This document shows positions 30,786 through 53,620 of a stretch of DNA of 64,000 nt, piece after piece. Source of the DNA: Psammoneis japonica (lineage: Eukaryota); the NCBI GenBank assembly GCA_008632985.1, contig QPGO01000016.1, forward strand, positions 654,840-718,839, written 5' to 3'. Within the stretch, counting starts at the first letter, position 1. Every line of letters starts with the position of its first letter. The notes below the pieces were generated by a model that saw nothing but the letters and a program-made list of their open reading frames with translations, was not told where the DNA came from and ran no database searches. Both the position numbers and the translations under genes were made by a program.

Positions 30786-31681
30786 TCAGTTTCCAACAAT
30801 AGTTCCAGCTCCACGAGAGCGCACTGCGGCCAATCGTTGAGACTGCTGCTTTTTGGCTGCCTCCACCATTTCTGCCGCCTTGAGCTCTTTTTGGCGTTCA
30901 ATCTCTGCCTTTTCTTCTGCCGTACGCAACCGGTCCGCCCACTTTTCACTCTTGTAAGGACGTCCGCCGCCCTTGGCTTCGTCCAGGTCACCAATCATCT
31001 CTGTCTTTCTCATGGACGCTTCGTTGTACGGTGATCCGGGCTGGGTATAGTAGGCATCCGGTACACCCGGTGGCAAACCGACAATAGGATTACCGATACC
31101 ATATCCACGAGAACGAATCTGAGATTGGTTGTGCATGTGGTGAAAGTTCATGTACTTTTCTTGATGACCCACATTGTCCTGGAAAGGAGCATTCGAATCA
31201 CAAAGTTGTTGAATGGATTCCGTCTTTTTCTTGATGTAATCCTCTTCTTGCGATGGTGGTTCGTCGTGCATAGAGGTCATCCATCCATGCCATTCCGGAG
31301 GGATCGATGTGGAGTCAAAGTTGTGAATGTCTCCAGGTTCCACCCAACGATGCTGACCAAAAGGATAATCGATGCGGTTCTCATAATAGCGATTGCCAGC
31401 GGCATCGCAACCCATGTAAGTACCAAACTTGAAAGGATAATCGCCATTCTGGAAAACAAAGAAAAAAGCGCAAAATCGATTTGTTGGTTCAATAGAGAAT
31501 TATCTACTTTTACTACGAAAATACGCCAACGAATACAAAAAGAACGTTCATCCAACAACAACATTTATCGTTCGATTCATGCAATGACCGCACTCACCGT
31601 GTACATGTGTTCCAAGAGACCTCTCCATCCTCCACGATACTTGAGTCCTTGGCGTACGTTCTGAATTACACTCCACACCAT
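30786..31681 (-). CDS. NDUFA12: NADH:ubiquinone oxidoreductase subunit B17.2; 2 exons (31681-31598, 31448-30786)
   Basis: Spliced MVWSVIQN..HMYT|NGDYPFKFGTYMGCDAAGNRYYEN..GQHRWV..IPPEWHGWM matches the NDUFA12 signature. Confidence 0.92.
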
Positions 31682-31844
31682 GGTGAAAAGCACACAGAGA
31701 CACAGAATGCGTTGCTTGTGTGCGTTGTCTTGCGTGCGTGTGTTGTGTGCTTTCGCCAACGGATGACGGACGGTTTGCAGAGAGCGCTCGATCGCGCGCG
31801 ATGTCGCTCGCAGCAGTCATCCTGCTTGTACCGGCAGTGCCGAC

Positions 31845-32240
31845 TGACACACTTACACATTTGCACTGTGCTCGAAGAACGAGCACACGAAAGTAGAATG
31901 AAGTACGAAAAGTGAAAATTATGAGATTTATTTCTACTCAATCATTTTGGGTTTCTCCGAACGGGTTCTCAGTGGCCCAAAAAGCTTTTGCACTGCTCCC
32001 ACAGACAAAAGGCCTTTCCAAGAACAAGATCGTGACAACAGAATGTCCGGGTGCGATTGATGTTGACACATGAGATGTCAACATCATCGCATGATTGCAT
32101 TTGCAATTTTCAACATCTGATCAATTCTGTGTGATTGATCTGTCCTTTGTGCAAACCCGCGATTGATGTGCGATTGAAGTGCAAACTTGTTTGATGTGTG
32201 GACATGCACAAACACAACACACATGACAACGCACACTGCA
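31845..32240 (-). repeat. 3' LTR of a Ty3/Gypsy element (~396 bp)
   Basis: Starts with TG directly after a polypurine tract (minus strand GGGGAGGCGAG, 32241-32251) that follows the integrase end; ends with CA; second direct copy at 48824-49218. Confidence 0.8.
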
Positions 32241-32266
32241 CTCGCCTCCCCAATTGCACATTGGAG

Positions 32267-35200
32267 TCAGTCATTAAATGGCATTGTCCAACGGATGTTG
32301 ACAGTGTCAATGACATCACTGCATTTGATCTGCACTGTGCCATTGGCATGCACCGTTGTCATTGCACACGGTCCAACGCAGGGCTGTTCTAATTTCTGCG
32401 AGTGGCATCTTTTCTCCTGCTCTGCACGTGTGTGGAGTGCGTCAAGCATTCTCTTGAGCATCATTTTTATTTGTGATTTCTTGTTTGCACTGCTGGATCA
32501 ATTTCCAGCCTGCGACATGTTGGACGTTAAATGTCGTGTCTCCATTGAAGACCAGCTGTCCCGGCGCAGCGCCAGCGCAGTGGCATGATGCGCAGAACGT
32601 GCTGCAAATGCCACTGCTGACAATGTTCTGGCAAAAGAATCCTCAGCATCCAGAGGTGCATGTTGCAAATCAAGTGTGTGGAGCATTTTTCCCAGCGCTT
32701 GATGCACGTGTTCAACAGCTGCGTTTGCTTGTGGATTTCGTGCAGTTGCAGGCTTGACTTCAATGCCACAATCATCTTGCACCATCATGTCTTTAAATTG
32801 GTGTCCAATGAACTCACTTCCATGGTCATGTGCAATTGACAATGGCCAAGGACATCCACTTGACCATGTCCATTCTAACAGTCCAGCTGCAGTTGTGGAT
32901 TCCTCATTTGGAATTTCCTTCCACAACTTCAAACCATCCGGTTGCTGGATCTCAATCATTGTTGAACATTTCAGGACTGGGGGTTTCTTCTTTCCATTGC
33001 AATGCATTTTGCATGGTCCAATGAGATCCACACACAGCCATTCCCATGGCACTGATTCTGCACACTCAGGAGGCAAATGTCCATGTTTCTTGTGTTTCTT
33101 TTTGAATTTCTGGCACACGTCTCACATCTCAACATGCATTTTCGCATGTCTTCATGCAAGGCACACCACCACAAGTGTTGTGAGTGCCAGGGTGAAGAAG
33201 GTGCACATGACACCAATCTGTTGCTGCCTCATGCAGCATCTTTGTAATGACAATTTTTTCCTCATGACATGTGAGCAACCGGTCTCGCTCGCCTCCACGA
33301 AAAGTCTTCATGTGAAATGTCTTGTTTGACAATTTGGAGAGAATGTCTTTGTCCCGTTTTTGTTCAGCATCAAGAATTTTGCAATTTGATGGAAAGACAT
33401 TGTCGCGGGATTTTGGCGGGACCTTTTCAGCTGACTCTTCTGTGCTGAGGTTTTCCACAGGTTCTGTTTTTTTTCACAGCAAGTCGGCTGATCACATCTG
33501 CGACAACATTTGCCCAGAACATGAGATTGTCAAGGCCACATGTCTTGACAGCAGTTGATCATGCTGACAAAGCATTGCAATTCCTTGTGAGTTTTGGGAG
33601 TTGCGATCAAGTGAATTGCTTCTGCTTTTTTTAGAATTGGGCTGATGCCATTGCACGCAATGTGAAAGCCCAGACAGTCTGCCCCAGGTTTGGCAAAAAA
33701 AGACTTTTTGGCATTGACCTTCAATCCGGCTTGTTCAAGGCGCAGAAACACCATCTCAAGCTTTTTGAGATGGTCTTGAAAATCACCTTTTGCAAGGCAC
33801 AGCACATCGTCAATGTGAGTCCTGACGAACTCCAGACCTGCCATGAGCTCACTCACGTGCTCTTGGAAAATGTCTGGAACTCCACAGATTCCCACAGGGA
33901 GTCTGCAGCACTCACATTTGCCCCAAGGCATGACAATCATGCACAAATGACATGCACGTGTCATCAATTTGACGTGACAGCATCCCATCATGTTTAAATC
34001 AAGGGACGTTGCATGCATGAAACCTTCAAGCTTCTGTGGCACATCCTGAACATTGGGCGCAGGAAACGGAGTGCGCATTGGCCTCTTGTTCAGCTCACGA
34101 AAGTTGGACAAAAACCAAACTCGACCATTTTTCTTTGGTTGAACAAAGGTTGGAGCTGCCCATTCAGAACAATTCATTTTTCTTGAGACCTTTGACTTGC
34201 ACATTCTTTCAACCTCCTTTTGAGCAGTCACCTCCAAGGCTTGTGGTGCGGGAAATGGTTTGGCATGATGCGGACTCGCGCCCACTTTCAACTTTAAATC
34301 CACCGGTTTCCCAGTCCATTTGCCCAGAGAACCATTGAAAAGGTTTTCAAATCTTGTTGAGAGGAAGTTTAGCTGCTTCTGCTCTTCTGGAGTTAGATGA
34401 GTTGCTGCTGCTGTCACATTGTTGAGGTCAGCAGCATGACAATCTGAGTCAAAAATCCAATTGACCCTGTCATCGAGACTGATCACAGCATGAGATTCCT
34501 CAACATGATCGGCAATCAAGTTAAAAACATTGGCATCAAAGAGTGCATCAACATTCTTCATGGGTGCAGTTGCGTCCTCCCATTTGATTTCTTCATTTGA
34601 GAAGTCCAATGTCACTCCAAGACTTGACATTGAGTCACGTCCCATGATCACATCACAATGACTTGAAGAAGAAGGGGTGTCATCAACACACGCCGTTGTT
34701 TCAATCATCTCATGTTTGTCAAATTTGTGCAAGAAGAGTTGGATTTTACATCAACTGTCAGTCGTAAAGAGCCCTCCTTTGGTTTCCCAGATTTTGGTGG
34801 TGGACATTTTGGTTCTGAGTTTCCGCGTGAATTTGTGCAAAATTGTGGTTGACAATGTTCCGCTGTTGAGGAGAAAGCACAGAGGCTTGTTTTTCACTTT
34901 GCCCAATGAGGCACCCACATGAGCGATGACCGCTGGACTGGCATGAATTGCTTTGGCCCTTTTTCCGGGCTTCCCAATGTCCAGCAATGCGCAAGACTCC
35001 TCTTGTGGTGCAAGTCATTTCTCAGAATTGCTGTGCTTCATTTTTCAAACTGACAATTCTCCTCATTGAGGGCATCAGAGTCACAACCTTTGCTCTTGCA
35101 ATTTTTGTCTTTGTTCAAAGAACTGACCTTGAGTGTTTTTTGAACTGCCTGGACTGCCATGGCATTCAACTCTTCTTTGCGAGCGGCATTTTTGTTGTCG

Positions 35201-36120
35201 CGACACAACCACGTGCGATTGCCATCATTTGAACGGCACCATTTTGGATCACGTTCATGGTTTCCATGGCATTCTTTTGCTGGGTTTTTGATTGACCAGC
35301 ACTTGTCCCTGTCATGAGTGGATTTTTTGCATGAAATGCACCACTTGTCAGACTGAGAATTTTTGGTGCCATGTTGGTGACCATTTTTGGAACCACGTTT
35401 GGAGCCATTCTTGGCTTTTGATCCAGAACTGCTGCTGCTGGCATTGGCCTTGACATGAACACTGTCAAACATTCTGTCCTCTGCAACCTGCAGGCGCTCC
35501 AGAAACTGAACCAACTTGTCGCAGGCATGTTTCAAAATTTCGAAACCTTGGGCGGTCAACTGACGCTGCCACTTTTGAGGTGCAAAATTGAAGAGGACAC
35601 CCTTGAGCTTGTCCTCCTTTGTCTTTTGATCCTCCTCAAAGAGAGGACAGAACTTGAGATCTTTGTTGACTTCCTGGACCCAAGCAGCAATTTTGTGCGC
35701 ACTTTCACAGTCTCTGGCTTCTTGAGATCACGACGCAAATGATGTTTCTGAATCTGGAGTGCGTTCTTGGGAAACACATGCTTTGTAAGATGTTGAAGAC
35801 ATGTCTTGAAGCTTCCTTTGGCAGATTTGTCTTCAACATTTGCTGCGCCATTCTTGAAAGCATGCAGAGCATCTCCTTGCAACAGCACGCTTCTTGATGG
35901 TCTGGCCCACTGAAAGTTGATCGCAGCTCTCAAGGAATTTGATGCAATTGGGAATGCCCTGTTTCTTGTGGTGCTCAACATTGATGGTGTGGGCACAACT
36001 GTCCATCTTCTTGGGATGAAAACACTGCTCTGTCTTGAGGCACTTGCTTGGTTTTAGCGTCTTTGGCTCAGAATTTGATTCCAATGGCTGAGGAACAATT
36101 TTCTCCTGCCTTGACGACAT
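32267..36120 (-). mobile_element. Degenerate Ty3/Gypsy gag-pol (gag ~35040-36120, protease ~34600-34900, RT ~33530-34250, integrase ~32267-33250)
   Basis: Protease LLNSGT and DVIMGRD; RT SEWAAPTF, FRELNK, SLDL, RLPVG, RTHIDD; integrase VDLIGP, HDHGSEF, NPQANAAVEHVH, and GPC (for GPY)..NGTV. Order PR-RT-IN; many stops and frameshifts. Confidence 0.93.
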
Positions 36121-36576
36121 CAGAGCGCGAAACACAGTGATCCTGACCACCCTTCTTATGGGCAATTTTTAACACTGTCATGGGAATGCAACAGTTTCAC
36201 ATTGAGTGAGTTGTGTAGAACGTGATTTTTTGTCACATGTCACAGTGTTACATTTTTCACCATGGGACCCCTCCTTCACCTGTGGGACCCCTCCCTTGAC
36301 TGTCAGAATTCCGTCACTTTTTACCTTTTGAAAGCAATGTTCACAACGTTTTGGTTGATGACAATTTAATGCCAATCATTGCATTGCATTGGTCAAGAGA
36401 ACCTTCCATTGCATGCACTGGTTCCATTGCATGCACTGGTTGTCAAACGAAAGGTTAGATCATAAAACAATGATCCCTTTGGTGCTTTGTCAAACCTTGT
36501 GACTGTCAACATTGAAACCTGCTACATTGCTTGTCCTCTTTCCACCATCACACTGACAAAAGCCTCCGCTGCCTTT

Positions 36577-37814
36577 TCATGCCGCAGCTTGCTCACCATC
36601 TGCATCTACATTTGCATCGCTTTCCGCATCACTGTCCTCCTCCCCTTCGTCGCTGTCCTCATCTCCTCTGTTCCCGTCCATCACCTCTTCCTCCTTCTCC
36701 TCGTCGTCACTTGAAAGCTCTGTTGTTGCCTGTGTTCTTGCCTCCTCCACCTGCTTTTTCTTTCTTTTTGATCCCTTGCCTCTTTCGTCACTCTTCCTTT
36801 TCTTGCCTTTGCTGTGCCATGTGTCGAACTGCATGCCCTCCTCACTCAACCTGTCTTTCTTTGCTGCCGCAAGCAGTTCGTTGAATCGCTTGATCCCCGC
36901 ATCTTTCCACGAGTCTTGTTGCCTTGACGGGTCCGTGTGCTTGGGTGTTGGTTCCGACTCTTCCTCATCTTCTTCGTCCGAACCCCCCCCTGCTGCAACA
37001 GTCTTGTCATGATGTGCCTTGTGCTCCCAACTCTTCCAGCAGTTTTCCAATGTCAACAGCGCTGGAGCCTCGTTGCTCGCTGCAGCCAGACCGGTTGCCT
37101 TTGTCTCACCCGACTCTACCTTCCTTCTCCATGTGGTGGTGCTCTTTGTGAATTTCAGGATGTTTTCGTAGAACCAAGCATGTGCTTCCTTGTTCTTGCG
37201 CTTGTCCTCCACAATCGTTGTCACAGTCTCCTCCCCCCCCCCCAAGTCGCCAGGAACGGCTCTTCCTCTTCCCTGCGATCGTTCTTCTTCCTCTTCTTGC
37301 TCTTCTTCCCACCTCTGCCCTTTGCTGCCGGCTTCTGACTGCGTGTCTCCTCTGCTTCATTCTCTGTCAACACGACTTCAACAAATGAAGGTGCAGTTGT
37401 GTCAAGCACAACTGCACTCAACATGCCGTGCACCACAAAACACTTGCCAGCCGCTGCATTGTTCTTGATCGCCTGAGTGACCGTGCTCCTTTTCGCGCTA
37501 ATTGCACACATGACACACTTCTTTGCCCAGTCTTCCCACGCTCCCGCCCAGTCTCGCTTGCTGCAATTTCCTCTGGCTGTCTTTTTCCTGATGAGCCGCG
37601 ACACTTTGCCACTGCTTGCCATGTCCGCCTTGACAAGGAATTTTGCCTTTGGGAAAAGTTCCTTCCGCGCCACCTCTTCTACCTCTCTCTTTGTAGACTG
37701 GTGATCCCCAGTGGCTCCCACCCACACCAACGCTGCGGCCAGCCTTGGGCTTGTTGGTTGATCTCCAGCCACCCCCGCAGTTCCTTTCTTCTTCTTCCTT
37801 GCCATTGTTGCCAA
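36577..37814 (-). pseudogene. Transposon accessory ORF, frameshifted at the poly-G near 37220
   Basis: ORFs 37221-37814 and 36577-37245 join at a homopolymer; motifs EA.ALLTLEN.W and PKHT..SW...GIKRFNEL, acidic tail. Confidence 0.6.
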
Positions 37815-38234
37815 TTGTGGGTGGCTCCATGCCTTGTGTCCCAGTCATTTTCGCCATTGGAAAATTTTCAAACCTCTCTTCAATGCTGAAAATCTCACAG
37901 TTGCCATCAACAATTCCTTTTTCTCAAATGCAACACAACTGAGAATTGACCAAATCTTTCAATGTGCGCACAATTTATCCATTTCACCACTCCTTGCAAT
38001 CTCATGAAAATTTTGAATCATTGCGAATTCCAGTTCAAACCTCTCTTTTGCTGCAATTTCGAAATCCACTTCCACAGCGTCAATTGCTTGCAAAAGCATT
38101 TTGTTCAAAACATCATTGTGAAACGTGTGCCCACAAAAGTTGTTTTTGCTGCAATGAACAAACCCCTCACCTGCATTGACGTCATTCCGGTTTGCTGTTG
38201 GGGCCTGAGCACATCCATCCTTTTTGGCGCCAAA

Positions 38235-39419
38235 TCATTTTCTCTGGTCCAATTCGTCATCACCCTCTAACTTTGTAACTCTCAACTTGATGTGTCGCCC
38301 GATGTCGGAACAGTCAGTCATGTGGGTGAAAGCCCTCGTCTCCGCTCCGACCATTCTCACAAATTCGTTAACTTCAATGCGATGACGTCTCTCCACCCAA
38401 CGCTTTTCCTTTCTCCTGCTTTGAAATTTCTCCCGCTCACCATCCTCCTTCCGGATGATGTCCAGCGTCCATTCATTGACTGTCCGTGGAGACAACCTGA
38501 AGAACTCCATTTGCTCACAGAGCCAAAGTCTTTCATGGTTGTCTCGCACAATGTCACGCTGGAACCACTTCGCCAGTTTTGGTGCATCGCAAACAATTCC
38601 CTTCTTGTCCATTGCAAGTCTGCATGTGCCTCCCCTTGCCGATGTTTCTCCCAACGGTCCGCAAGTGCCTGTCTCGTCCATGCCACAGGTTGGCATGCTG
38701 ACGCTCGAATTCCGTCTCAATCTCGAAACGTCTCCCCTGTCAATGACCAGTTTTGTGTCATCACACGCACCCGCTGCAAATTCATCCCTCAGCTCTTTCT
38801 CTCCTTCATTGTGCAGAGCACTGCAGACACAGCACATCCTTCCTTGCCTGTCTTGGTGAGTCGCGACGCAGTCCCAATGCTCCGGGCAATGGCGAGCACC
38901 AATCCCACGGTTGACGATGCCATTCAACCAGTTCAGGTTGTCGTGAATTGAGATCATGCCTGTGCTGGCGTGCATGTGCTCAATTGCTTCTGTGCTCCAA
39001 TCACTCACATGTTCGTGCAGCCAAACCATGTGGTTGTACCTCTGCTTCCACAGTTCCCGCCACCTCCCTTCGATGTCGTCCTCATTCATCATGCGTTGCA
39101 GGTCCATCGCGTCACGGTGCAGGTGTGGGTTAACCGCATGTGCACCGCTCTCAAACTTGATCAAAGCCACACCCGTGTCATCAGAATGCACCATCCCACC
39201 TTGTGGTGAACTTTGCATCAAACAATCCAATTCATCAAAAGCCGCCTCGTGCTCCGATTCCATGATTTGTCGCCTTCCATCTGCCGTCATGATTGTCAAA
39301 CTTTCAAATCTCCTCCAGCAGTTGTTTGGCCAATGTGCCATGAAGCGGTCATTTTGTACAACAGCATTCATTGTTGATTGCAATGTTTGTGTCTGGTGCT
39401 GCAGCAGGTGTGGGTGCAC
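38235..39419 (-). pseudogene. Transposon cargo ORF of unknown function (394 aa)
   Basis: Long ORF within the element with a single Tyr; no family recognised. Confidence 0.45.
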
Positions 39420-39734
39420 CCCTCCTGGACTTCTCGCTGTGACGCATCACGGCTCATCACGTCACAACTTATTTTTTCCTTTCCGTAGAAAAACAACATT
39501 TGCAATCAGTTGTTCATGCTCAAAGTTGTCAATCATTGCAATGCACTCGATTCATTCTCACCTGTTGATGTTTTCATTGATGGGAAGAACACAATGCACC
39601 CATGTTTTCACGCCAATTCGTGTCGTGTTTTCCTTCCTTGCTGCCTGAACTGTTTCACTTTTCACGAACTGAACCGGTGCTGCCATTCGAACACACATGT
39701 GTTTGGGCAGCCCACAAACCTGCTGCAACAATGA

Positions 39735-42700
39735 ATGGAAGGAAATGGTGGTTGGCAGGGTGGGGGTGGTGTGGTGGCATGTCCCCGTTGCAAACGATCC
39801 TTCAAACGGATGCTCACCCATTTCCATCATGACCCACCATGTTTTTCATTTGCTCAAGAGATGTCCAACTTGTCACGTCGTGATGCAGTCACAAACTGCC
39901 CAGTGCCAGAGTTGTCAGCAAGGGTTGCAGCTAAATCTTCCAACATCAGCAACAAATTCTCTCGCAGACGTGGGTCGGTTGATCTCGACATTTCCTCCTC
40001 ATCAGATGATGCGTCACAGCCACGGCTGAGGCGGTCCAGATGAGGTGCGTCCGCAGCGAACATCAGGCTTGGGTCCACTGACAACGAAAATGACAGAAGC
40101 GATGAACCATGGTCACCACCGTTTGATGATGACATTTCCACTCTTGGGTCGCAATCCCATCACAAGGAAATTCATGACATGTCCCTGGACTTGTCTTCCG
40201 AAGCCAGCTTGTCACCAGACAACTCGTTTGACGCACTGCCAGATGTCACAATGGAGGGCTCCGAAGTTGCAAATCCTGACGAATCAAACAGCTTAGACGA
40301 AGAGATGATTCGCGGAGTGAAGATGGCCGATTGGGTGAGGTGCACCGCAGCCCAGCCGAAGATGCCTTTGCACACATGCCATCTCTTGGCAACCTCAACG
40401 GTGAGTGTGCAGAGCTGTGCAAGCTCTTAGACGACTGCAGAGCACCGCTTCACCTGTGCGACAAGATCGCCGAGTTCATCGAAAGACACTGTGGCAGCAC
40501 CTTCCATCTTGGAACGCAAATCCCTCGCCGGACCAAACCAATGGAGAACCTGCACAAATCTTTTGCAGGTCCGGAATGCGAGATGATTCCAGTCAACCTA
40601 GAAAGCGTCAATGGGGAACGCGGTGAGACAACAGCAAGAGTTCCGCGATGGAATTTCAAAGATGTGTGGGAATCGTTCATGCTGGATGCTTGCACATGGG
40701 CCAACCCCAGCAATCTCGCCGACACTGCCAATCCATGCGGAATGCATGTCTCAAAGGGAAAGCACGACAAGTGTGTTTTGGCAGGAGAGTGGTGCAGAAG
40801 CACGCACGCAGCCAGGGTCTTGGATCCTCTTAAAGAGTTCCTCGAATGTTTGATGATTTACGTTGACAAGACTGGGAAGACAGCCTCCATGTCGTCTTCC
40901 TGCGGAGAACCCATCACAGTTACGTCGGCTCATGTTGCCTGCAACCAATGGCATGACAGAGCAAAGTGGCATGTCCTTGGTTGCATTCCTGACCTAGAAA
41001 AAATGTCCTCCTCCGCCGCCAAACAGCAATCCAACGCTCGAAAGTCGGAGAAGGGCCAAAGCATCCGGGATCATCACAAGGTGTTGGCAACAATGCTCCA
41101 GCCTCTGCCAGACACAATGGAAAACGGTGGCTTTTGCTGCCACGTTCGACGCGGTGATGAGACATGTTTCCTTCATGTCATTCCAACAATGATCCTGATC
41201 AACGGAGATGCGAAGAGTGGTGACTGCCTTGTGGGCAGGTGTGGTGCCAAGAACTGTCACCAACGTTGTTCCAGGTTTTGCATGACCGGATGCAATGAGC
41301 TTGACGACCCTTGGAAGGAGTGCGAGCTGGTCAGGGCTGGTGACATTTTGTCAGTCCAGAGCCACGCAAATGATCTCAGTCTTGACGAGCAAGAAAGGAG
41401 CCACTGGCCACAGCAGCTTCATTGCATGAAGCAGCACAATGTGCCCACCAACAGCTTGCTCAATGCAGATTTCGGAGAACAGCCATTTGGAGCAACCCTT
41501 TCCACGGCAAGCGACATGATGCACCTTTTTGAAAATGGAACTTTAAAAAGGGAGGTTGGTGTTTTTGTCGACAGCATGACAAACTCAGTGAGAAGCGAGG
41601 TCGACAGACCAGTGGAAAAAATGTTTGGCAATCACTGATCCACGTGCAATTCTTTCTTACGAACCAATTTCAAGGGCGGGGCAACATCACTCACCTGCCT
41701 CAACTCACATCATTGGGCGGGGATGGCCTTTGTTTTTCATTTGTTGCTGCTGACAAAGGAAGGCAGAGATGTCTGCGAATCTTGTTTTCTCCAGGAAGAC
41801 CAAGACAATCCTCCATTGCCGTCAGGGCATGGGATGCCCAGGTTCCGAATCAATCGCTGTCACATGCCGGAAGAGTGCGACAATGGCAACGATCATCACT
41901 CCAATGACAGAACAGATGATCCGCACAAAACGGATGAAGACGATTGTGTGGAACAACAACCGGACGAGTCCGAGGATGAAGGCAACAGCCACAATCAACG
42001 GAAAAGGAAAAAAAAGAGAAAGCCCCTCAGTTGCAGTGTCAGGCAATGCATCCAGTTGCTGGAAGACCTGCTTGCCTTCCATGCTTGGCATCGACTCGGC
42101 GACCCACCGACCGACACAACTGACCTGACCAAAACCACAAAGAAAATTCGGTTGCTGGTGTCTCGCATCACACATTGCTCCCCCAGACACGAAGGGGCTG
42201 GGTGGAAGCTGCAAAAACTTCACGAGCTTCTTCACCTTCCAATCTTTCTGTGTCATTTCCGTCATGCCATGAACTTTGACGCTGGTCTTGGAGAATCTTT
42301 GCTTGAGGATTTTTTTCAAATTGCCCTCTGCCACGGCACAACAACGCAGCTTTGACATCTTCCTGGGTCAGGTTGCGTCGCGCATGCAAGACCAAATGAC
42401 GGTGCACCGTGCGTTGTCGGTCAACCCATGGATCACATGAGAGTTGGACGAAAGGACGTTGCACGTGGTGACGACAGTCACACACTGGGTGGTGGTGCCT
42501 TTGCCATCACCTGCAGTGCGACAAACAATGCAGTGAGCTTTCTCTGGCACGGAAAGCAAAAACAATGTCAGGTTCACCCGGCCCTGCTCCATTTCTTTCA
42601 AAAGAAGTGGAGGGAATGCGTTGGAGCAGGAGGTGACCTCACTGTCAACCTTGTTTGCAAAACCGAATTCCGCCACAAGAACGGGAAAGACACTTGCCGC

Positions 42701-43135
42701 GCACACCCAGACTGCAACAGCGAAGGACCGGTTCATGACTGGGCGAATGTTAACTTTGGCACAACTGGGGGGGAATTGTGCTTCCCGTCAAGACTTCACT
42801 GTTTCTTCCAAAGGGAGAGCGACGGTGACTTGCATGCGGTCGTTCACCCTTGCACGTGCCAGCCTGACAAGCGCACCATGGTTGAACGAATGCAACACAC
42901 CGACCTGGTCAGTTGCTGGCAATTGGACCAAGTGAAGAACAACAACTTGTCCTCTGCTGAACAAACAGTGTGCTCACCCAAGCTTTTCTTGGTGCCCATC
43001 GACGCTGTTGGTGACAAATTGTTGGTGCATGAGGAGCAACCCGGCATTGCTGAGACACACGACAGGAAAAAGCATGTTTGGGTGGTTCAAGACCACAGAA
43101 ACACATGGGGAGAGCTGTTTCACAAAAGCAGGTGA
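39735..43135 (+). pseudogene. Plavaka-like transposase, disrupted
   Basis: N-terminal C2H2-like CPRCKRSF..LTH; IYVDKT, VLGCIP, INGDAKSGD, DMMHLFENG and WKLQKLHELLH..NFDAG.GE motifs across ORFs 40331-41638, 41723-42355 and 42428-43135. Confidence 0.75.
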
Positions 43136-43249
43136 AAAGCATGTGAGCACCCGACAACAGCAGCAGAAAACTTAATTGGGACAACAAGGACAACAGAGAC
43201 AACATTCACTCACCTGCTTTGACAATCTGCTCACAAATCCGACTGGGAA

Positions 43250-46200
43250 CTAGCACAGCAAATGGCTCCTAGGCCATTTCCTTAACTCATCCCTGAAATC
43301 AGGAATTCTCCTCTCGAAGGACAGGAACGGGAACGGTTCCTTCGGGTTGTAATTTCCACACTCTCGTGGGAACTCTGGGACTGAGTTGGCTTCTTCATGT
43401 GGCAGCGTTTCCCAAATTTCCTGTTCCGTGACTCCCAAATGCAATGCTTCCTGGTCAGATGGTTTTCCCAGCCAATCCACACGGCACTCCTCCATGATCT
43501 CCTGGGAAGCCTGGTGGAGCGTCACTGTTTCACATGCCATGTCCTGTGTCATGGCCTGCACCAGTGCGCATTCCAAAATGTCATCCAAATTGCGCACGGT
43601 TTGGGTCAGTGACCAAATGGTGCACGGGATTATGATGCGGCACCTCTGGAGCTTTGGATGAAACAACGTTTCCATCATATCCCTCAGGTTTTCGCCAAAG
43701 AAGCGATTTCCGAGTGTCAACTGCAGCCACTCCCCTTTTTGCATCCAGCAGCAGTCCATGCAGATCTGAGTGAAGCCACTTTTCTTAAAATCAATCACTG
43801 CTCCAAACCGCATCTTGACCCTTTGGGCAAAATTCTTGGCGGACATGTTGCAATTCAAGTGACAAGCGGGGCTGCCATCCTGCAGGGACACAGTGCATGC
43901 ACGAACATTTGAGTTCGTGTGGAGATCCTGAACGACTTGACACCTTGCCTCATCTCTTCTTTGCTGAGTGGATCGGATGGCCTCCATGCCACGGTCCGAA
44001 CATGTCTCATCTAATGTCAGGTTTCCGGCCATGACGGGCCTCGTCATGCAAAGCCACAGGACATTTGCACCTCCGTCTTGTCTGGGGATGACATGACAAT
44101 GTGAAACAAAAGCACAGGAGGAGTCATGTTGCGGGTTAAGATTTGTGAAAAACATGACACCAAACATTTGCAGGAGTTCTTCGGCTGTTGATGGACTTGC
44201 TCAAAAATGGCACTCACATGTTTGTCCATGTCAAAATCTTGCACTTGTAAAAGGACCGGTGGCTCGGGTCGATCGTACGTGGTCACGTTGCTTGCATCAT
44301 CTTCATCGGATTCTTGATCCTGCAACTGAAGGACAACAGAATCTACCGTGACAATTGGAACGCGGCAGTCAGAATCAGGACACGAGCAGTCCTCCGACAA
44401 CACAGACTCCTCCAAAGACAATGAGCTGAGTTCATTGTCTGCGGCGAGTCGAGACTCCTCCGAATCCAATGAACTTAGTTCTTTCTCCGCGTCAAATCGA
44501 CAATCCTCCAAAGACAATGAGCTAAGTTCATTGTTTGCGGCGAGTCTAGACTCCTCCGATGACAATGAGCTAAGTTCATTGTCCGCGGGCAGTCCATCAA
44601 CAGCAGAGAAAACACTGGCACCGTCTGATTGCATGGCTGATTCACACACAAATGTGCGCGATTCAGTGTTGTCTTGTGGTTGGCAAAGGTTGGGGTCGTC
44701 ATCAACACACTCCAAAATTTCATGCTCGGTTGGCCCACATGGCTTACGGAGACACTGCCCAGAGGGAGAGAAGGCAAACAGGTCTTGTCCTGAACAGGGT
44801 CCTTGGAAAACACAATCAAAAATGTGGGTGCAGCGATTGTCTGAATTCTCACAAAGTTTGTGCTCGGTTCCGTTCCAACCGTGCTCTTCGGCTCCTGTTT
44901 CGGATGACATCCTTTGGTGCATGAGCGGCCTTTCTTCCGGTTGAATGTGCCCCAGTTGTGCGGCAGCTCCCGAGTTGAAGACAGGACAGACAATGTCGTT
45001 GAGTCTTGGATGGTCTTTCACTGCGACACCTGCCAGCACCAGACATTGCAGCACCAACATGAGACGAATCTCACTGAAATCTGCTCCCCGGTCTGCCCAA
45101 GCATCACACGCTGCCTTGCACCGTGTTTCCATTAAGTTGGGACAGAACTCGTTGGTGTCGACATTGTTGTTTGTCCAGAGAAGTGCAGCGTGGATTTCTT
45201 CCACCATTGCGTCAATTGGTCATTCGCGGTTCCGACGTGACAAGGGTCTAGAAATGCATCGCAAAATTTCTCGTACGTCAAATTGGCAGGGCTGATCCCA
45301 CCCACCTGTGGGTCACCGCATGGCACCCCAAATGTGTTCTGCAAGCAATCGGCAAAGTTGACAAACGGGTCAGCACCTTCGCAACAAAGGTCAGGAAGAT
45401 GCTTGTCCCCCACGCAGTAAAATCCATGACATCTGGTGGGACAACCAGCATGGATCGCCAAACGAATGACTCGTTTTGGGTCGGGACCCGATCGGTGCAC
45501 AATGTTCTTGAAACGGCAGATCAATGTGACTGGGGCAGACAAGTGGAAGTCCCTGACTGGGAAAGTCGGGAACTTGAGTCGATCCATGTGCACCTCAACA
45601 CATGAAGAGTCGCCACCTCCACCAACAAGAACATTGTCCCACGGCCTGTTGTCATCAAGGGAAAGATGCTTGAATGCAATGCTGGAAAGTGACACATCGG
45701 GGTGGGTGGGACCATCGTGCTGCAAGTCCAAGTCTTTAAGTGCAAAATCAAGCTGAGCTCGATTGTGGTGCGTGCGAGTGAGCACAGGCTTCATGTCGCA
45801 CTGGTCGTCGCAGTGTTCACCAATGGTCCTTCTGCTGTTGGCAACAACCTTGAAGGACCAGATGTCGCCAAAGGCATCCACAACAAAGAAGCAACTGGCA
45901 GCTGTCTTCCTGTGTCGACGCCAGGTGCAGTTTTTATTGTCACAGTGACCATCACAGACTTGACCCCGGGAAATGCACAATCCCTGCACAGTGACGTCCT
46001 CACGTTTGAAGAAGAGACAGCCCATTTGTTGCCCAACTTTTGCGAGCACTCCTCGCACCGAAGTGACCAGTTAAATGGTGGTGGATTGCTCAGTTTTTTC
46101 AGCTCTACCTCATTTTCGCAAAGCTGAATCGAGTCAAGGATGTCGGCTGCCATGGACTTGATTTTGAGGTCTCGTTGGTGTCAAAGTCATCATTGGACTC

Positions 46201-48216
46201 AAAGACATCAAGTCCGTGGGTGGCCTTTGGTTCAGCCAGTTTGGCAGAACCAGGCATCTTGGGGTGATGCGCTCTCCCAGCACAACCAAACTTTGTCCTG
46301 CGTGCTTCGCCGTTTTGAACTGCAACCGGTCCGTCACGTGTCAAATTGGACTCTCCCTTCAACAAAATGGGTGGAAGAAGGGTGGGAATGCATGCACGAA
46401 GGCACCCGAAGTGCCCCTTGTACAGAGAGTTAGCCTGATGGGCGATGGAGAGTTCCTCGGAGAAGTGATCGAGGTCAGGAGGGCACTCGGTTCGAACATG
46501 AGATGCGGTGGCGGAATCACACAATGGCGCATTGTTTGAGAACGTGTGCCAGTTTTCCCGCAAGTTGTCTGCCAGGCAAAAGTCGGCGGCAGAATGATGA
46601 AGCACCCGATCAGTGTCGGTGGCTTTGTCAATGATGTGCAGGTGTGACAAATGAGAAGAAACTTCCTCGGTGGTGACGGGTTGACACTTGGACGGGTCAA
46701 AGCGATCGCGGAGTGTGGACAGGTCCAGCCACGACATGTCGTTGGGGTCACCAGGAGGAGACGCAACCCCGGGAGGATCAGCTGAAACAGAAAGAGGAGA
46801 GGAACGAGGTTTGGACGAAGGACCTTTGGAGGTAGAAGCAGGTTTTAGGTTTTCCACAATTTCTGAGAGTGACGGAAGGTCGGCGGTGAGAGTCCGGTGC
46901 ACCTCCCCAGATGACGGAACATTGCCAGAAAGCGATGGAGGGGCTTGTTCATTGCGAGATGCAGGCTTGGCCTTCTTGTTGGGAATGGTCAAGGAAGGCT
47001 CTGGTGGGTCGTGAACAATCATGGGGTGTGAGAAGAGACATTGAGACGACAGATGCAGGCGGAAAGGCAGAAGGCGGGAGGTGGGGGGGTTCTCACCATC
47101 GCACAAACAGGTGCCATCCTTGCGGGTCCTCCCAATTTTGCATTTGGTTTTGGAGTTGTAGATTCGTTTGTCATTGTCTTCCAAGCAGCCAGCCCTCTGA
47201 TCATGCACTCTGCAATGGAGCATTGTGAGCTGCTTGCTGTGCCCAGGTCGGATGCCAATTTGCTCCTTGGGACAATGCTTCCCGAATTCGTGATTCAACA
47301 TGGAATTGATTTTTTCTTCATGAGCCTCACGGTGTGCAAGGGAATCGCCTTGCATCATCACCGTGTTCTTCATGTCACCGGTTGAGTCGTCAAGGAACCC
47401 CTTGATCTCATCCGCCTGGGCACCAGGATCGTTGGCATTGCATGTGACCAGAAAGCTGTTGACAAAGAGGCACCATTCCTTTTGGGTTTTGACGTGATGG
47501 AAAATCTTCAAGAACCAATGGTCCATGTCCTTGGGCTTGCACTGAACGTAACGCATGACGACGTCAGTGACAAAACAGGCACTGTGGAGGTCTTGGGCTT
47601 GATCGTTGATCAAACTTTGGAGACTTTTGCACCGTAAAAATCGGAAACAAGGCTTGCCGGATAAAGGATCATTCAGGTCATCTCCGGCAATGATCGTGTG
47701 AACAAATTCTGCCATCGCCTGGATGTTGCGGTGAAGAAGCATGCAGTTGTGCTGTTCTTTTTCTGTCTCTCTGGACATTTTGGAGAAATGCAGAGCCTCC
47801 TCGAGATTTTCATGTCGTGGGACATGTTCGCCTTTCACACGGCGGGATTTCTCAATGGACCAACCACAAGTCATGATGCAGGACCAAATGTTGGGACAGC
47901 CAAGGGTTTTCCTTACAATGTCATTGGTGCGGACAACTTCAGCAACACAAGGAACACGGCACAACTTCGGCTTGTGACAAAGGAAGGGAAGAGCAAGGAA
48001 TTCTGGAGAGGGGGTCCAATTCGTCGACTCCAAAAACTTCTTTTTCGAGGCACGCATTGCAGTTGTGCTTTTGAGCTTGGGTTGGAACAATTCGAATCCG
48101 AAGCCATTGGTGAAATGTTCTGTTTCATCAAAATTTAAGTCCTCGGCAATTTGGAAAGAAGGGTCAGGGTCGACCTCGTCGTCAGACGGGGTAAAGTCGT
48201 TAGACGCCATGGCCAA
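43250..48216 (-). pseudogene. Run of co-oriented cargo ORFs (46105-48216, 45132-46058, 44044-45207, 43250-44167), possibly one or two frameshifted genes
   Basis: Four long overlapping or abutting minus-strand ORFs (703, 308, 387 and 305 aa), all Tyr-poor. Confidence 0.55.
44405..44588. repeat. 48-bp coding tandem repeat, ~4 copies (ADNELSSLSxEESRLA)
   Basis: Unit GACTCCTCCAAAGACAATGAGCTRAGTTCATTGTYYGCGGCGAGTCKA repeated with substitutions. Confidence 0.9.
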
Positions 48217-48823
48217 CAGTCAGTTGCCGATTCACATAGAATGCACAGGATTCACAACAGTGCACCCTCTCGTCAAAAGCATTTTGGGGAGAGGGTGTGC
48301 TGTTGTGAAATGGGCAGAGAACTGCGCATGTAGAAAAGGTGCCAAAATGCAGGTGGGGGCCCATTGACTGGACAACTGGAGCGTGCAGGTGGAAACAATG
48401 AGACAGTGTTCCTCCAGGTGATTGCATGGCCGACTGGGGCGAGGGAGAAATGCCATTGTCTGTGGTGACGCAAGGCTGCGGTGAAGCCATTGAAAAGCAC
48501 TGTCAAAGTCAACGATTCCACAAATGTGTGAAAAATTGATCAAAACAAAAAGTGTTGTTCAACAATGAAGGGCTTGTTGAAATTCTTTGGCAACTTAAAA
48601 GCAAAATAAAACGGCAACAATTGCCAACATAAAACGGCAATGACAAACGCAAATTGACTGTCAAAAAACAAATGAACTGTCACCAATTTTTGCACACAAT
48701 TGTCAAAACAAATGTTCCAAATTTTCTAAAGGAAAGTGAACAACACTGTGTTGCGGCCTCTGATGGAAGTCTTGGCGTCAGCAACTTGAGGAGAAAGCTT
48801 CATTTTTGACTTGTTGCCTTCTG

Positions 48824-49218
48824 TGGTGTGCACACACAATGCACTGTGCTTGAAGAACAAGCACAAACAAAAGCAGAGTGAAGTGCAAAAAGTGAAAATT
48901 GTGAGATTTATTTCCACTCAATCATTTTGGGTTTCTCCAAAAGGTCTCTCAATGGCCCAAAGTTTTTGCACTGCTCCTGCAGACAAAAGGCCTTTTGGAG
49001 ATTGAGATCGTGACAACAAATTGTCCAGGTGCAATTGACATTGACACATGAGATGTCAACATTGCAACGCGATCGCATTTGCAATTTTCGACATCCAATC
49101 AATTTTGTGTGATTGATCTGTCCTTCATGCAAACCCACGATTGATGCACGATTGAAACACAAACTCACTTGGCACATGGACATGCATTTGCACAACGCAC
49201 ATGGCAACGCATGTTGCA
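48824..49218 (-). repeat. Second LTR copy (~395 bp), probable 5' LTR of the Gypsy element
   Basis: Colinear direct repeat of 31845-32240 (e.g. AGTGAAAATTRTGAGATTTATTTCYACTCAATCATTTTGGGTTTCTCC). No matching TSD found. Confidence 0.8.
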
Positions 49219-50567
49219 CATTGGAGGCACATTGTGAGTGAGTTGAGGCTCAATTGTTGCCGCTGACAGATTTGGTCTTCTTGTGCCATGCTGCAGCCTG
49301 AAACAAGCATTTTCATTGTTGTGACAGATGCCACAGACCATGCCAAACACTGTGGTCCTTGTCATGAAATTCAATTTTCCATGGGGTTGAAAAAAGTGGG
49401 CTGACGTGGTTGCTGAAAGCCTTGGCTGTTTTGGCTGTTGGCTGGTTTGAATTTGCGTTGTTGTCAACTTCACTCAAAAGCCACCAATGAGATCAAATTA
49501 ATTAAAGAATGTCACCGATGTTGAACAAAGCACAAAACATTCATTTTTCAGGGTTGTCAAATTGCAGAATTTTCCATCACAATCAGTTTATGGTGGAATG
49601 TTGCATGATGAAGAAATTGCAAGTGAGTTGTCACAAAAAGATGTCATTGCAGTGATTTCACAATCATGTTGCAATCACATTACAGTGCTGCCTCCCCGGC
49701 AGGGGTGCCCACCCTCCACGCAAGAGAAAGGCTTGCCACAGGCAAAGAAAAACAGAGAGCCTGCAGCGCACAATCTGGGCAAATTTCTGGCATCAATTTG
49801 GACCTTGATGGCAACCTCAAAGACAGTGTTTAAGATGATGCTGGAAACATGTGCAGAAAACCAGCAGTGTCTTCACTCATGCTGCAGTTGTTTCTTTTCC
49901 ACCACATTGTCCCAAGATGCAATTGTGGCAAGGAGAGGCAAAATGAGAGGCGGCAATTGCTTCTTTCTGTTTCTCTCATTTCTTTTTTCTTGACAGGTGC
50001 AATGCAGAAATGAGACACTGGCAGCTGGGGACTGCGTGGCATCCAAAAAGAGCAGCGGTGGTGCAGTGCTGCAGGTGCGCCTCCAAAAAATGTGTCACGC
50101 GCGCATGTGATGTAAGATTCCACATGCCGAATCTCACATTTGGCTCTCTGAAAGAGCTTGCACATGATTGCAAACAACTGCAATTGTGATCACAACAAAG
50201 GCGCGTGCAATCAGATTGACCGTGCATGACAAACACAAATTGCAACAACCATTTCTCAGATGTGGTGATTGTTTGCACAATCAATTTTACAATCGTTCTC
50301 TCTGCAATTTAAAAACCCTGATTTTTTTCATCATGAAAAGAAGCATGTGCATGCTGCCCAAGTCTGGGACAAGTCTCAAAGTGGTGGGTTCCTGACCACA
50401 AGCGCGCAAAAAGAACAAGAAGCACTGCAGCAAAACTGCGCCTGATGTGTGTGTGTGCAACATTGCACCTTGATGAGGGCAAGCAATGAACTGAGTGTGC
50501 ATTGTTCAATTGCATGCAAAGGCAGCAGCCAGACACTCTTTGCACCCGGTTGGCACCATGTCATCAC

Positions 50568-51130
50568 TGCAGACGTGTTCCAGTCCCAGGTGACGCACAA
50601 AACGACAATCGGATTTTGAATATAATTTATGTATATTTTAGTGTATATAGCATTTTAATAAAAATACTTAGACGGATTGACTTTTATAGGCTTCTAGAGT
50701 ATGAACACTTAAATAGTTTTTTGAGTGGTATTCAAATCCTCATGGGATATGTATCATAAACTTCCTCAGTAGACTCAATACTGATTGTACGTCAGTAGAT
50801 TTATACCGAGATATCTTTGTAAGTAGAAAATTTACCAAGTATCATCGTAGAAAAATATATTTAGGTAACATCCAAATAACGGCAACATTTTCGCCGAAAA
50901 TCATCCGTTGTGTTACGAATCTTTTAACGCAATGAAAAACATAGATAGCACAATAACAATGATATTGCAACACTCACACGAGTCTTGTTAGTGTTGCAAA
51001 ACATTTACATTTGTATAAATCTATACTTTTGGTGGTGAAAGTTCGATCGTAAGTTAGGGACCGCGCAAAAATCGCGCAAATGTCGTTTTTGTGCACGATT
51101 TGGTTCACGTGCGGCTGGAACACGTCTGCA
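50568..51130. repeat. Inverted repeats (50568-50607 and 51081-51130) enclosing an AT-rich ~470-bp island
   Basis: TGCAGACGTGTTCCAG (50568-50583) is the exact reverse complement of 51115-51130; GCACAAAACGACA also pairs with TGTCGTTTTTGTGC. Confidence 0.8.
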
Positions 51131-52297
51131 TTTTGCTTTTGCAATGGGGTCACAAGAGCAGCAGCCAAGCCATCAATTTGGCCTCCTCTTTCAGTGCCAC
51201 TGCTAGCATGGAATTGGGTGCTGTGCTCTTTTTTGACTTGGAGAAAATTTTTGATGGACCACACTTTGTCTGCAGCAATGTGCAAGGAGGCTTCATGCAG
51301 GCCTGTGCACACATCAATGGAGTGTGGCACCATGCAAGGCTTTTTGTGCTTTGCACTCACCAACAAAGCAATGGGTCATGCAGCGAGTGAGTCAATCTTG
51401 CCAGAGCAGGCTTGTTTGATTTTCCTGATCACACCACATGCAGTCTTGTTGTGGAACATTGAGCCAGGAAGATTGAGCCAGGAACATCAAGCCAGGAACA
51501 ACAGCTCTCCAACATGTTGCCATCAGACCAGAGCAGCACGATTCTTGCTGATCATTTCTTCAATCATTTTCTGCAAGAATCAGTGCCACCAAAGCAAGCT
51601 GCTGCAGACTCTGGGTCAGCAGCTTTGGAAAATCAGGCCAGCATCATTTGGCACTCTAAAGCAACTGCGTGCTTGCGGCGCACCTTTTTTTTTGCTCTCC
51701 CTCCATCTGCGCTTCTCTCTTGGTTCAACCAGTCAACCTCAACCCCACATTGCCAGCACACCTGGAGTTCTCAGTGTGGCACTGTCTCTTTTTTGCTTGT
51801 TGCCATTGCAGCTGTCAATCAATCACGCCAGGAGGAGAAAGAAGTGCAACTGCTCAAAATGGTGGGCACCTGATCACAAGCACAAAAACAAGCACTGCAA
51901 CAATTGCATCTGCTGCGCATGTGTGCAATGTTGCAGCTTGGCCAGTTGGCACAAGCAATGGGCTGAATGTGTGTCATTCAAGCAGCTGTGCACAAAAGCA
52001 GTGACCAGAAGTTTCACACACTCAATTGGCACAGCGTCATTGTCACATTTTGCTTTTGCAATTGTGGGGGTCATGAACAGCAACTGAGCTGTTGATTTGG
52101 TCTCCTTTTGGTGCCACCGCCAGCACAGAATTGGGTGTTGTGCTTTCTTCCAACTTTTGTCTGTGCAGCAACATGCAAGGCTTTGTGCTTCACATCCGTT
52201 CACATCCGCCAATGCTGTGTGAAGCAGAGCGAGTTGTGCAGCCAAATGAGTCAATCTCTTGTCAGACCGGGCTGGTTTGAGCATTTTTTCTGATCAC
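51128..52297. repeat. Diverged direct repeat (~51128-51432 and ~52045-52297) in a TpA-depleted domain
   Basis: Shared blocks in the same order: CATTTTGCTTTTGCAAT, GTGCCACYGCYAGCA..GAATTGGGTG, CATGCAAGGCTTT, TGAGTCAATCT, TGATCAC. Confidence 0.75.
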
Positions 52298-52545
52298 TTT
52301 GTGGGGCCCTGCAGTTGGGAACTGCGTGTTGCATGTGATGATGTCCATCGCTCTTGACACAAAACTCTGGACATTCTGTTGATTTGGAGTTCTCATTTTT
52401 GTTGCTGTGCGTGAATGAAATGCACAATGTGCGAGTGGGTGCCGCAGCTGCCAGGTAGATTTTTTTGTCGGCATTGCTTGGTGGCCCTTAAACAGCCCTT
52501 GGGGCCCCAACATTTTGACTTAAGGCCCATGTGTGGTCAGGTGCC

Positions 52546-52868: not shown

Positions 52869-52874
52869 ATTTAA

Positions 52875-53408
52875 CACGGGATCCACGGGTGCACCCGGGA
52901 ATTGCGGGATGAAAGGGGAAAGGGGCAAATGGGAATGTTGGGAAAGCAAGGGGCTATTGTTGTGCCTTAAGGGTCCCTTTAGTGAGCCGAACACGCACAT
53001 TTGTCATCTGACCATCATAGGTCCGTCTTATGGGGGGTGTCAAAATGTTGTGACGGGACGCGTCTTGAGGATTAATCGTTATATAATATATATGGCTATG
53101 AAGGCTATATAAAGTTGAAAAACGTACGTGCGCGTTTTTTATGTGTGTCGTTTTCAGATTTATATAATGTTAATGGTCAAATATATAATATATAAAATTA
53201 TTTCTCGAGACCGCGTCTGCTCTCACAATTTAACGACCCCCGAAAGGACGGACCTACGAGGGTCAAATCAGCAATAAGCGTGTTTGGCTGACTAAAGGGT
53301 CCCTCAAGGTAAAACAACAGCATGTCACTTTTCCACCATTCACATTTGCCCCTTTCCCCTTTCATCCCGCATTTCGCAGATTCCCCTGGTGCATCCGCGG
53401 ATCCCGTG
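52875..53408. mobile_element. piggyBac-like MITE: ~200-bp imperfect terminal inverted repeats around an AT-rich spacer
   Basis: TTAA|CACGGGATCC..GGATCCCGTG|TCAA; arms ~52875-53076 and ~53198-53408 are reverse complements (both give MKGERGK.E.W..GPFS.PNT in the ORF track). Confidence 0.8.
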
Positions 53409-53620
53409 TCAACAGACCCAGTCATCTCTGACCATGCTTTTACAAGAGACTGCGGTCATCTTGAAGAATCTGCGCCACATCTGTTTTGACTTTTTGGACT
53501 TGATGTTGGATTGGCTTGTTCTCTGTCGAACACACGCCGACACAATCCTGTCGACAGAGCTTTTGATGCGCCTCAAGAAGTGTCGTTCCTCACTCTGCCG
53601 TAAAGGATTTGTTTGCAATC

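Follow-up and report, generated by a model that had tools for sequence, protein, structure and literature searches.

The stretch of Psammoneis japonica DNA considered here (assembly GCA_008632985.1, contig QPGO01000016.1, positions 654,840 to 718,839 of the forward strand; 64,000 nucleotides, hereafter the window) contains two direct repeats of 395 bp; they are the long terminal repeats (LTRs) of a minus-strand Ty3/Gypsy element, now decayed. Most of this element lies in an island of repeated DNA which is very poor in the dinucleotide TA, reduced in CG and rich in CA and TG. Comparison of the two repeats, of the proteins encoded between them and of the base composition suggests that the LTRs of one Ty3/Gypsy family, together with an old, broken element and its nested repeats, have probably been eroded in place by two dinucleotide-specific transition processes. 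The locus is composed as follows:

31845-32240, minus strand: copy 1, the 3' LTR, with TG...CA ends on the minus strand, directly beyond the polypurine tract and the integrase end
31845-31965 (121 bp): outer block of copy 1, which escaped the erosion, with 6 TA and 6 CG
31966-50620 (18.7 kb), no strand: TA-poor, CG-reduced, CA/TG-rich island of repeated DNA, defined from the 1-kb profile, positions and mass balance
32241-32251, minus strand: polypurine tract GGGGAGGCGAG, directly upstream of the 3' LTR (read by eye)
32276-34966, minus strand: Pol remnant, reverse transcriptase followed by integrase, with a broken frame and no tyrosine codon
34936-36063, minus strand: weak gag/protease-like remnant (tblastn with three longer homologues, E = 2e-21 to 7e-7)
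36112-48759, no strand: nested repeated DNA of about 12.6 kb in the Gypsy leader or gag start, TA-poor, delimited by a contig junction of run X1
46108-48219, minus strand: 704-aa reading frame of the nested element
48760-48823, minus strand: leader beside copy 2, with a possible gag start codon (by eye)
48824-49218, minus strand: copy 2, in the position of a 5' LTR of the same family, with 1 TA and 9 CG

Copy 1 is the 3' LTR, since it adjoins the integrase end and the polypurine tract. The frame 33530-34750 (minus strand) contains the Pfam domain RVT_1 (E = 3.5e-8) and matches Ty3/Gypsy Pol proteins with a best E value of 3e-132 and 53% identity; the homologues listed carry RVT_1, RT_RNaseH, Integrase_H2C2 and rve. 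In tblastn searches, reverse transcriptase (RT) mapped to 34966-33500 of the minus strand and integrase to 33401-32276; some 180 residues of the RNase H region are absent, and no Gypsy homology or second Pol remnant was detected elsewhere in the window. The element thus resembles Ty3/Gypsy elements in the order of RT and integrase, in the direct terminal repeats with TG...CA ends and in the polypurine tract beside the 3' LTR; it differs from them by the absence of a target-site duplication (TSD) and of a primer-binding site recognisable by eye, by the missing RNase H part, by its broken frames and by an insertion of 12.6 kb.

Copy 2 is located 12.7 kb past the last gag match. One contig of run X1 links position 36111 to position 48785 via 23 letters; another genomic copy without 36112-48784 must therefore exist, the DNA between these positions is thus a nested insertion, and the leader of the family is attached to copy 2. 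Since the 23 linking letters are a diverged match to 48760-48784, the insertion comprises approximately 36112-48759 (by eye). The evidence for nesting is this single contig. GCCT occurs at both junctions (by eye) and could tentatively be taken as the TSD of the nested insertion. No terminal repeats of the nested 12.6 kb were found by a self-comparison in purine/pyrimidine code, and a Pfam search of 39-49 kb gave no match. A word-indexed protein search gave no match for the 704-aa frame; a full HMMER search yielded 77 representative homologues (best E = 2.4e-57). Ten of these were scanned: nine were without a Pfam family, and one had only beta-sandwich domains of the SdrD_B/CarboxypepD_reg type at residues 59-129, outside the stretch matched by the query (371-693). 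By its homologues, the frame looks like a member of an uncharacterised protein family of a repeated element. The nested DNA also contains, at 40280-43135 on the plus strand, a series of three open frames which share one phase (about 950 codons, two in-frame stops, no Pfam match), and at 44404-44588 a 48-bp tandem repeat of 3.9 copies. Long open frames are to be expected in TA-free DNA, since TAA and TAG cannot occur there.

The TA content of the whole window (observed/expected ratio, o/e, of 0.40) is an average over two states. In 1-kb windows of 32001-50000, o/e values were 0.01-0.18 for TA, 0.36-0.79 for CG and 1.34-1.93 for CA/TG; outside the eroded stretches, TA was mostly at 0.4-0.75 and CG at about 1. 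Further eroded stretches are present at 1-708, 17050-19000 and 51056-52456. A pooled comparison of 22.7 kb of island with 41.3 kb of background gave the following values:

TA: o/e 0.08 in the island, 0.56 in the background, change of -34.2 per kb
CG: o/e 0.53 in the island, 1.01 in the background, change of -23.8 per kb
CA: o/e 1.67 in the island, 1.21 in the background, change of +29.2 per kb
TG: o/e 1.61 in the island, 1.19 in the background, change of +26.1 per kb

The loss of TA and CG (58 per kb) is nearly balanced by the gain of CA and TG (55 per kb), and the other dinucleotides change by at most 14 per kb (GC +13.6, GA -9.2). The products are equally distributed over the strands, with 1879 CA and 1836 TG in the island and 432 and 454, respectively, in its Gypsy part, and show no strand clustering. 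The whole of 31966-49500 consists of repeated DNA: at a likeness of at least 80%, run X1 has 8096 contigs matching 31500-49500, whose differences from the window amount to 1684 transition places and 480 transversion places. GC-biased gene conversion was considered as a cause and rejected, since GC stands at 0.49 in the island and at 0.47 in the remaining DNA, and since the change concerns two dinucleotides specifically; selection against TA was likewise discarded, as the signature is also present in non-coding LTRs and dead frames.

The TA dinucleotides which survive in the pooled islands (31966-50620, 51056-52456, 17050-19000 and 1-708; n = 117) have flanking bases far from the background distribution (chi-square p = 3e-36):

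TTAA: 28 observed, 4.6 expected (6-fold over)
CTAA/TTAG: 21 observed, 7.6 expected
ATAC/GTAT: 0 observed, 18.3 expected
ATAG/CTAT: 1 observed, 12.7 expected
ATAT: 1 observed, 8.5 expected

Reverse-complement classes agree with each other, and the ratio for ATAA (0.8) is the geometric mean of those for ATAT and TTAA, as a multiplicative model acting per strand predicts. This flank bias, as read from the surviving sites, may represent an extended motif of the mutator. An imperfect palindrome of 540 bp (52871-53412, arms of 73% identity) lies at the right edge of the eroded zone; TA is mostly kept in it.

Pairwise alignment of copy 1 (31845-32240) with copy 2 (48824-49218) gave 393 columns, 5 gap columns and 74 mismatches (81.2% identity), the latter consisting of 64 transitions and 10 transversions. 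The divergence by transversions is 2.5%; in purine/pyrimidine code the copies are 97.5% identical and constitute the only long repeat detected in this manner within the island. Transitions affected 46 of 202 pyrimidine-purine (YR) sites and 18 of 191 other sites (Fisher p = 3.5e-4), which is a 2.4-fold enrichment. An earlier, sequence-only reading of this DNA had proposed that the two copies record independent hits on TA, directed towards TG or CA. Its observations are sound, as all strings quoted in it are present at their places. Within 31891-31940 copy 1 and copy 2 differ as TA/CA at 31894, TA/TG at 31904, CG/CA at 31906, TA/TG at 31920 and TA/CA at 31935, with a shared TA at 31929/48909; the two exchanges of TG and CA which it cited (32061 and 32169) are real and are 2 of 14 such cases. 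Of the 64 transitions, 46 are in YR dinucleotides. The one TA kept in copy 2 (48909) lies within a minus-strand AATAAA near the outer end of the LTR, which may be due to chance.

Among 101 aligned YR dinucleotides, four classes were distinguished:

unchanged between the copies: 69 (31 CA, 33 TG, 4 CG, 1 TA)
one-sided, TA-type: 5 (TA in copy 1, CA or TG in copy 2)
one-sided, CG-type: 13 (CG in copy 1 for 8 and in copy 2 for 5; the partner is CA or TG)
flips: 14 (TG in one copy, CA in the other)

A flip requires two hits inside one dinucleotide. In 20,000 random placements of the 64 transitions, the mean number of flips was 2.8 and the maximum 10; with 46 transitions held inside YR sites, the mean was 5.2 and the maximum 12. 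The natural reading of the 14 flips, as had been suggested before, is that a TA or CG of the ancestor gave rise to one product in one lineage and to the other product in the other; the excess over chance agrees with this. No single flip can be traced to TA rather than CG. Since 4 CG were kept in both copies and 13 were lost on one side, the loss of CG per lineage is about 0.6, from which about 5 flips follow. Those beyond this number fit saturated loss of TA. If the inner 275 bp had once had the TA/CG density of copy 1's outer block, about 9 flips would be expected there, and 12 were seen. Two duplicated stretches in TA-normal DNA of the window served as controls. They had ratios of transitions to transversions of 19:14 and 32:15, YR enrichment with p = 0.48 and 0.69, and 1 and 2 flips, and thus displayed none of the flip excess, the YR enrichment or the high transition ratio of the LTR pair.

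Some details of the alignment should be mentioned separately. Two clusters, 32018-32020/48996-48998 (CCA/TGG) and 32209-32212/49187-49190 (CAAA/TTTG), are exact reverse complements between the copies (by eye); they resemble micro-inversions and supply 3 of the 10 transversions. Inversion of dinucleotides as a source of the flips was set aside, since the loss of TA and CG is independently evident and predicts about 9 flips in the inner part, where 12 are present. Where a non-YR transition touches a flip, four of five cases read GTG versus ACA, on either strand (e.g., 31847, 32179, 32190, 32236; by eye), as would be expected if the ancestor had been ATA and A-to-G changes had struck one strand twice in one copy and the opposite strand once in its counterpart. 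Strand-coordinated clusters were also tried as a description and rejected: the 14 flips form 5 runs (about 7.9 expected), but CA and TG in the island alternate slightly more often than at random (z = +2.8).

Since two copies alone cannot show the direction of change, it was taken from protein outgroups. In a comparison of the RT frame with 60 Gypsy Pol homologues, none of 14 conserved tyrosines was kept (9 became Cys, 3 His and 2 Phe); other conserved residues were kept at 161 of 230 positions (hand sum), among them Phe at 11/12, Pro at 14/16 and Gly at 13/15, and the frame has no tyrosine in 406 residues. For the whole Pol and its closest relative (P0001), the result was 0 of 35 tyrosines (15 Cys, 9 His, 4 Phe, 7 other), with Phe kept in 21 of 27 cases and Trp in 12 of 15; with five further homologues, between 0/26 and 0/34 tyrosines were kept. 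Changes of Ile or Met to Val followed a T in five of eight cases, those of Glu to Lys or Asp to Asn followed a C in four of six, and Arg was replaced by Cys, Gln or Trp five times. The nested 704-aa frame kept none of 7 conserved tyrosines (3 Cys, 4 His) and contains 0.4% tyrosine versus a median of 2.9% in its homologues. In two unrelated island elements, therefore, TAY has turned into TGY or CAY and CG into TG or CA. The direction from TA to TG or CA which the sequence-only reading had assumed is thereby supported, as it is by the agreement of deficit and surplus in the island. At position 49002, one of 40 places listed out of 2175 variant places, all 23 other contigs have A, like copy 1.

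A border of the erosion lies inside copy 1. Its outer block of 121 bp contains all 6 TA of this copy, its inner part (275 bp) 0 TA and 8 CG (for TA, Fisher p = 7e-4); in copy 2 the block matching the outer block has 1 TA and 0 CG, and the inner part 0 TA and 9 CG. The one-sided YR differences located from 31854 to 31958, 10 in number, without exception carry the TA or CG in copy 1 (binomial p = 0.002); with 2 flips they make up the 12 differing YR sites of the outer block. TA and CG were kept here in copy 1 and lost in copy 2, and the four TA sites emphasised in the sequence-only reading are therefore one-sided. A contig of run X1 covers the unique flank and continues to 31966, with 3 differences in 467 bases. 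The escaped block adjoins 345 bp of CG-rich unique DNA, which leads to a minus-strand NDUFA12 gene whose product retains its tyrosines. Active promoter chromatin may limit the eroded domain at this point. Elsewhere, a 435-bp AT-rich block with about 55 TA (50621-51055) lies untouched between two eroded stretches, with borders sharp to a few bases.

Two dinucleotide-specific transition processes have thus acted at this locus; they have a direction, are confined to repeated DNA and yield equal products on both strands. The following sequence of events is proposed. Erosion would act in place, on the double-stranded chromosomal DNA of the repeat island; action in place and on both strands is indicated by the near equality of CA and TG, by the border inside copy 1 and by the untouched block at 50621-51055. 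TpA would be converted to TpG or CpA (A:T to G:C) almost completely, and CpG to TpG or CpA about half way. Inside the island each ancestral TA or CG would be resolved independently in each copy, so that about half of the doubly hit sites would now be TG versus CA. The outer 120 bp of copy 1, on the promoter side of the NDUFA12 gene, would lie outside the eroded domain, and only copy 2 would have changed there. The process on TpA could be an enzymatic deamination of adenine preceded by T and aimed at silenced repeats, by analogy with the alga Bigelowiella natans; the process on CpG could be ordinary deamination of 5-methylcytosine in the same silenced chromatin.

Several points weigh against this interpretation. 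Of the 74 differences of the LTR pair, 28 (18 transitions and 10 transversions) are outside YR dinucleotides, so that the pair must be old or non-cognate, with ordinary change behind much of its divergence. The assignable one-sided differences are more often of the CG-type (13) than of the TA-type (5), and CpG decay contributes to the pair at least as much as loss of TA. All five differences of the TA-type are in the outer 120 bp of copy 1, and the two copies alone do not reveal their direction. Two flips (31848 and 31850) fall inside the block regarded as unmutated, at an end which is hard to align. There is no TSD around the pair, the 5-bp flanks being CCGAC and CATTG, in agreement with what had been noted earlier, and inspection by eye revealed neither a recognisable primer-binding site nor a TGG-type site beside copy 2.

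If only CpG methylation decay and random transitions had been at work, with TA in copy 1 derived from CA or TG by chance or by a process such as repeat-induced point mutation (RIP), the 13 one-sided CG differences and the CG deficit of the island would be accounted for, and the two copies alone would indeed hide the direction. This is very unlikely, considering that TA is depleted sevenfold in the island, whereas RIP would raise it, that all 35 Pol tyrosines were lost, mostly to Cys or His, and that only about 5 of the 14 flips are predicted. Neither the loss of TA nor the conversion of tyrosine codons to codons for Cys or His can come from deamination of 5-methylcytosine in methylated transposons. 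Some long-read platforms err systematically at modified motifs, and modified bases in silenced repeats could have been misread as transitions in base calling or assembly. Such an artefact is scarcely credible here: the contigs of run X1 reach 315 kb, which implies accurate reads (although X1 may be the assembly's own data), the run contains a fraction of 0.71 of the words sampled from 28000-36000 (half of this stretch is island), a likeness of at least 99% to the island is shown by 1275 contigs of X1, and the frames show a coherent recoding of Tyr to Cys and His. Editing before integration, either of the element RNA by an ADAR-like enzyme or of single-stranded cDNA by an APOBEC-like enzyme acting on adenine, would place borders at the ends of elements, as they are seen at 50620/50621 and 51055/51056, and ADAR prefers U before the edited A (Mettrop et al., bioRxiv 10.64898/2026.01.13.699255). 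It is nevertheless improbable. One-strand editing gives a single product, yet CA and TG are equally frequent without strand clustering and tyrosine became both Cys and His; this mixture, the strand symmetry and the spared LTR end, which would have been part of the cDNA, argue against it. The nested element and its host are both saturated, and the process in B. natans acts on integrated DNA (bioRxiv 10.64898/2026.01.13.699255).

With respect to erosion in place, a different question is whether the two LTRs are cognate, and here the balance is near even. The prospect that they stem from two insertions of one family, for example by a rebuild through unequal recombination or from a truncated neighbour, is considerable, though a little short of even; part of the divergence would then be older than either insertion, and the erosion would still hold, but the pair would be neither a clock nor proof of change after insertion. 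The missing TSD speaks for such an origin, as do the transversion divergence, the 18 transitions outside YR and the many copies of the family. Copy 1 is bordered on its left by unique DNA (one contig, depth 57.5). To the right of copy 2, from 49224, lies another repeat, and where this continues in other copies it bears no likeness to the left flank. Eight bases that follow copy 2 on the right also occur internally, next to the polypurine tract; the shared motif TTGCACATTGGAG, to which attention had been drawn earlier, is real, but just 8 of its bases lie beyond the LTR end, and there is no Pol homology to the right of copy 2. On the other hand, the two repeats are oriented alike; copy 1 adjoins the polypurine tract and the integrase end, copy 2 adjoins the leader of the family, and no second Pol remnant is present elsewhere in the window. 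The 12.6 kb between them are explained as a nested insertion at one position of the family, which, on the single contig, leaves one continuous internal region; a recombinant element would show the same.

The claims of the sequence-only reading regarding mechanism are therefore borne out in part. Direction and inflation of dating stand. Independence of the hits follows from the excess of flips (14 versus 2.8), but not from the five TA-type differences, which are all one-sided, lie within 31854-31935 in the outer block of copy 1 and do not represent hits in both copies. Identity of the LTRs at insertion is left unproven by the missing TSD, the unique left and repeated right flanks and the 2.5% of transversions. 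The Kimura two-parameter distance of the pair is 0.229 for all sites, 0.133 for non-YR transitions with all transversions, and 0.026 for transversions alone. Inflation of an LTR-based date is thus real and at least 1.7-fold, and more if the non-YR transitions beside flips share the process. The pair is old on any measure, and, with no TSD and with CpG decay at least as visible as loss of TA, it is among the less clean records of the erosion.

A more general suggestion, put forward tentatively and with somewhat less than even confidence, is that this genome possesses a repeat-targeted defence which edits DNA adenine, a kind of "reverse RIP", acting in place on both strands with borders of a few bp, stopping about 120 bp inside an LTR next to the promoter side of a housekeeping gene, erasing TA in ATAT-like contexts entirely and largely sparing TTAA. 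LTR dating as well as inference based on dinucleotides would then be invalid in such genomes, and, taken together with B. natans, editing of TpA in invading DNA would be a widespread and overlooked defence of marine protists. If the reading of erosion in place is right, silenced repeats of this genome would lose TA, together with about half of their CG, far more rapidly than ordinary changes accrue. The frames of dead elements would lose all tyrosine and thereby be hidden from domain searches (compare the E values for RVT_1, 3.5e-8, and for Gypsy Pol, 3e-132); they stay long, since two of the three stop codons contain TA. TpA hypermutation, described in 2026 for an alga unrelated to this organism, would have in the present locus its second and independent example, which would point to a DNA adenine-deaminating defence which can be searched for genetically.

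Fungal RIP turns CpA into TpA and thus enriches TA in repeats. The present case is similar in that dinucleotide-specific transitions riddle repeats and destroy reading frames within sharp limits, and the Discussion of the B. natans preprint draws a like comparison (bioRxiv 10.64898/2026.01.13.699255). The direction, however, is the reverse and the base chemistry another one (A:T to G:C): TA is destroyed and CA and TG are enriched, and instead of an excess of TpA the island has an o/e of 0.08. CpG decay is resembled in the change of CG to TG or CA, in the differences and flips between copies and in the CG o/e of 0.53.

The closest counterpart is B. natans; literature searches for this process in diatoms or LTR elements returned only the preprint on that alga. 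In its mutation-accumulation lines, two integrated viral regions acquired 231 mutations, of which 230 were A to G or T to C, all of those on TpA, with a rate raised about 1000-fold and measured over generations; 1-kb windows low in TpA and high in CpA+TpG form clusters, and Pfam families of reverse transcriptases are over-represented in genes poor in TpA (Mettrop et al., bioRxiv 10.64898/2026.01.13.699255). Psammoneis japonica shares with it the directed conversion of TpA to TpG or CpA on both strands and the confinement to DNA that is foreign or repeated, where windows combine little TpA with much CpA+TpG. When the cut-offs used for B. natans are applied (Rho TpA at most 0.43, Rho CpA+TpG at least 1.52), 16 of the 18 windows of 32001-50000 lie within them, the other two falling short in CpA+TpG (1.46 and 1.34). 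There are differences as well. In B. natans the rate was measured and viral insertions were the main targets, whereas here the end state alone is seen, in LTR retrotransposons and nested repeats; the loss of TA is fuller here (o/e 0.08) than in the viral region there (Rho 0.45). Changes in B. natans were almost exclusively A:T to G:C on TpA; here, loss of CpG accompanies them, with a CG o/e of 0.53, 13 CG differences and 18 non-YR transitions in the pair, while the strings "diatom", "LTR", "retrotranspos" and "CpG" do not occur in the preprint text (bioRxiv 10.64898/2026.01.13.699255). To the picture known from B. natans, the LTR pair and its island would add an erosion border inside an LTR, a near-exact mass balance of TA and CG against CA and TG, symmetry of the strands and a survival of TA which depends on the flanking bases.

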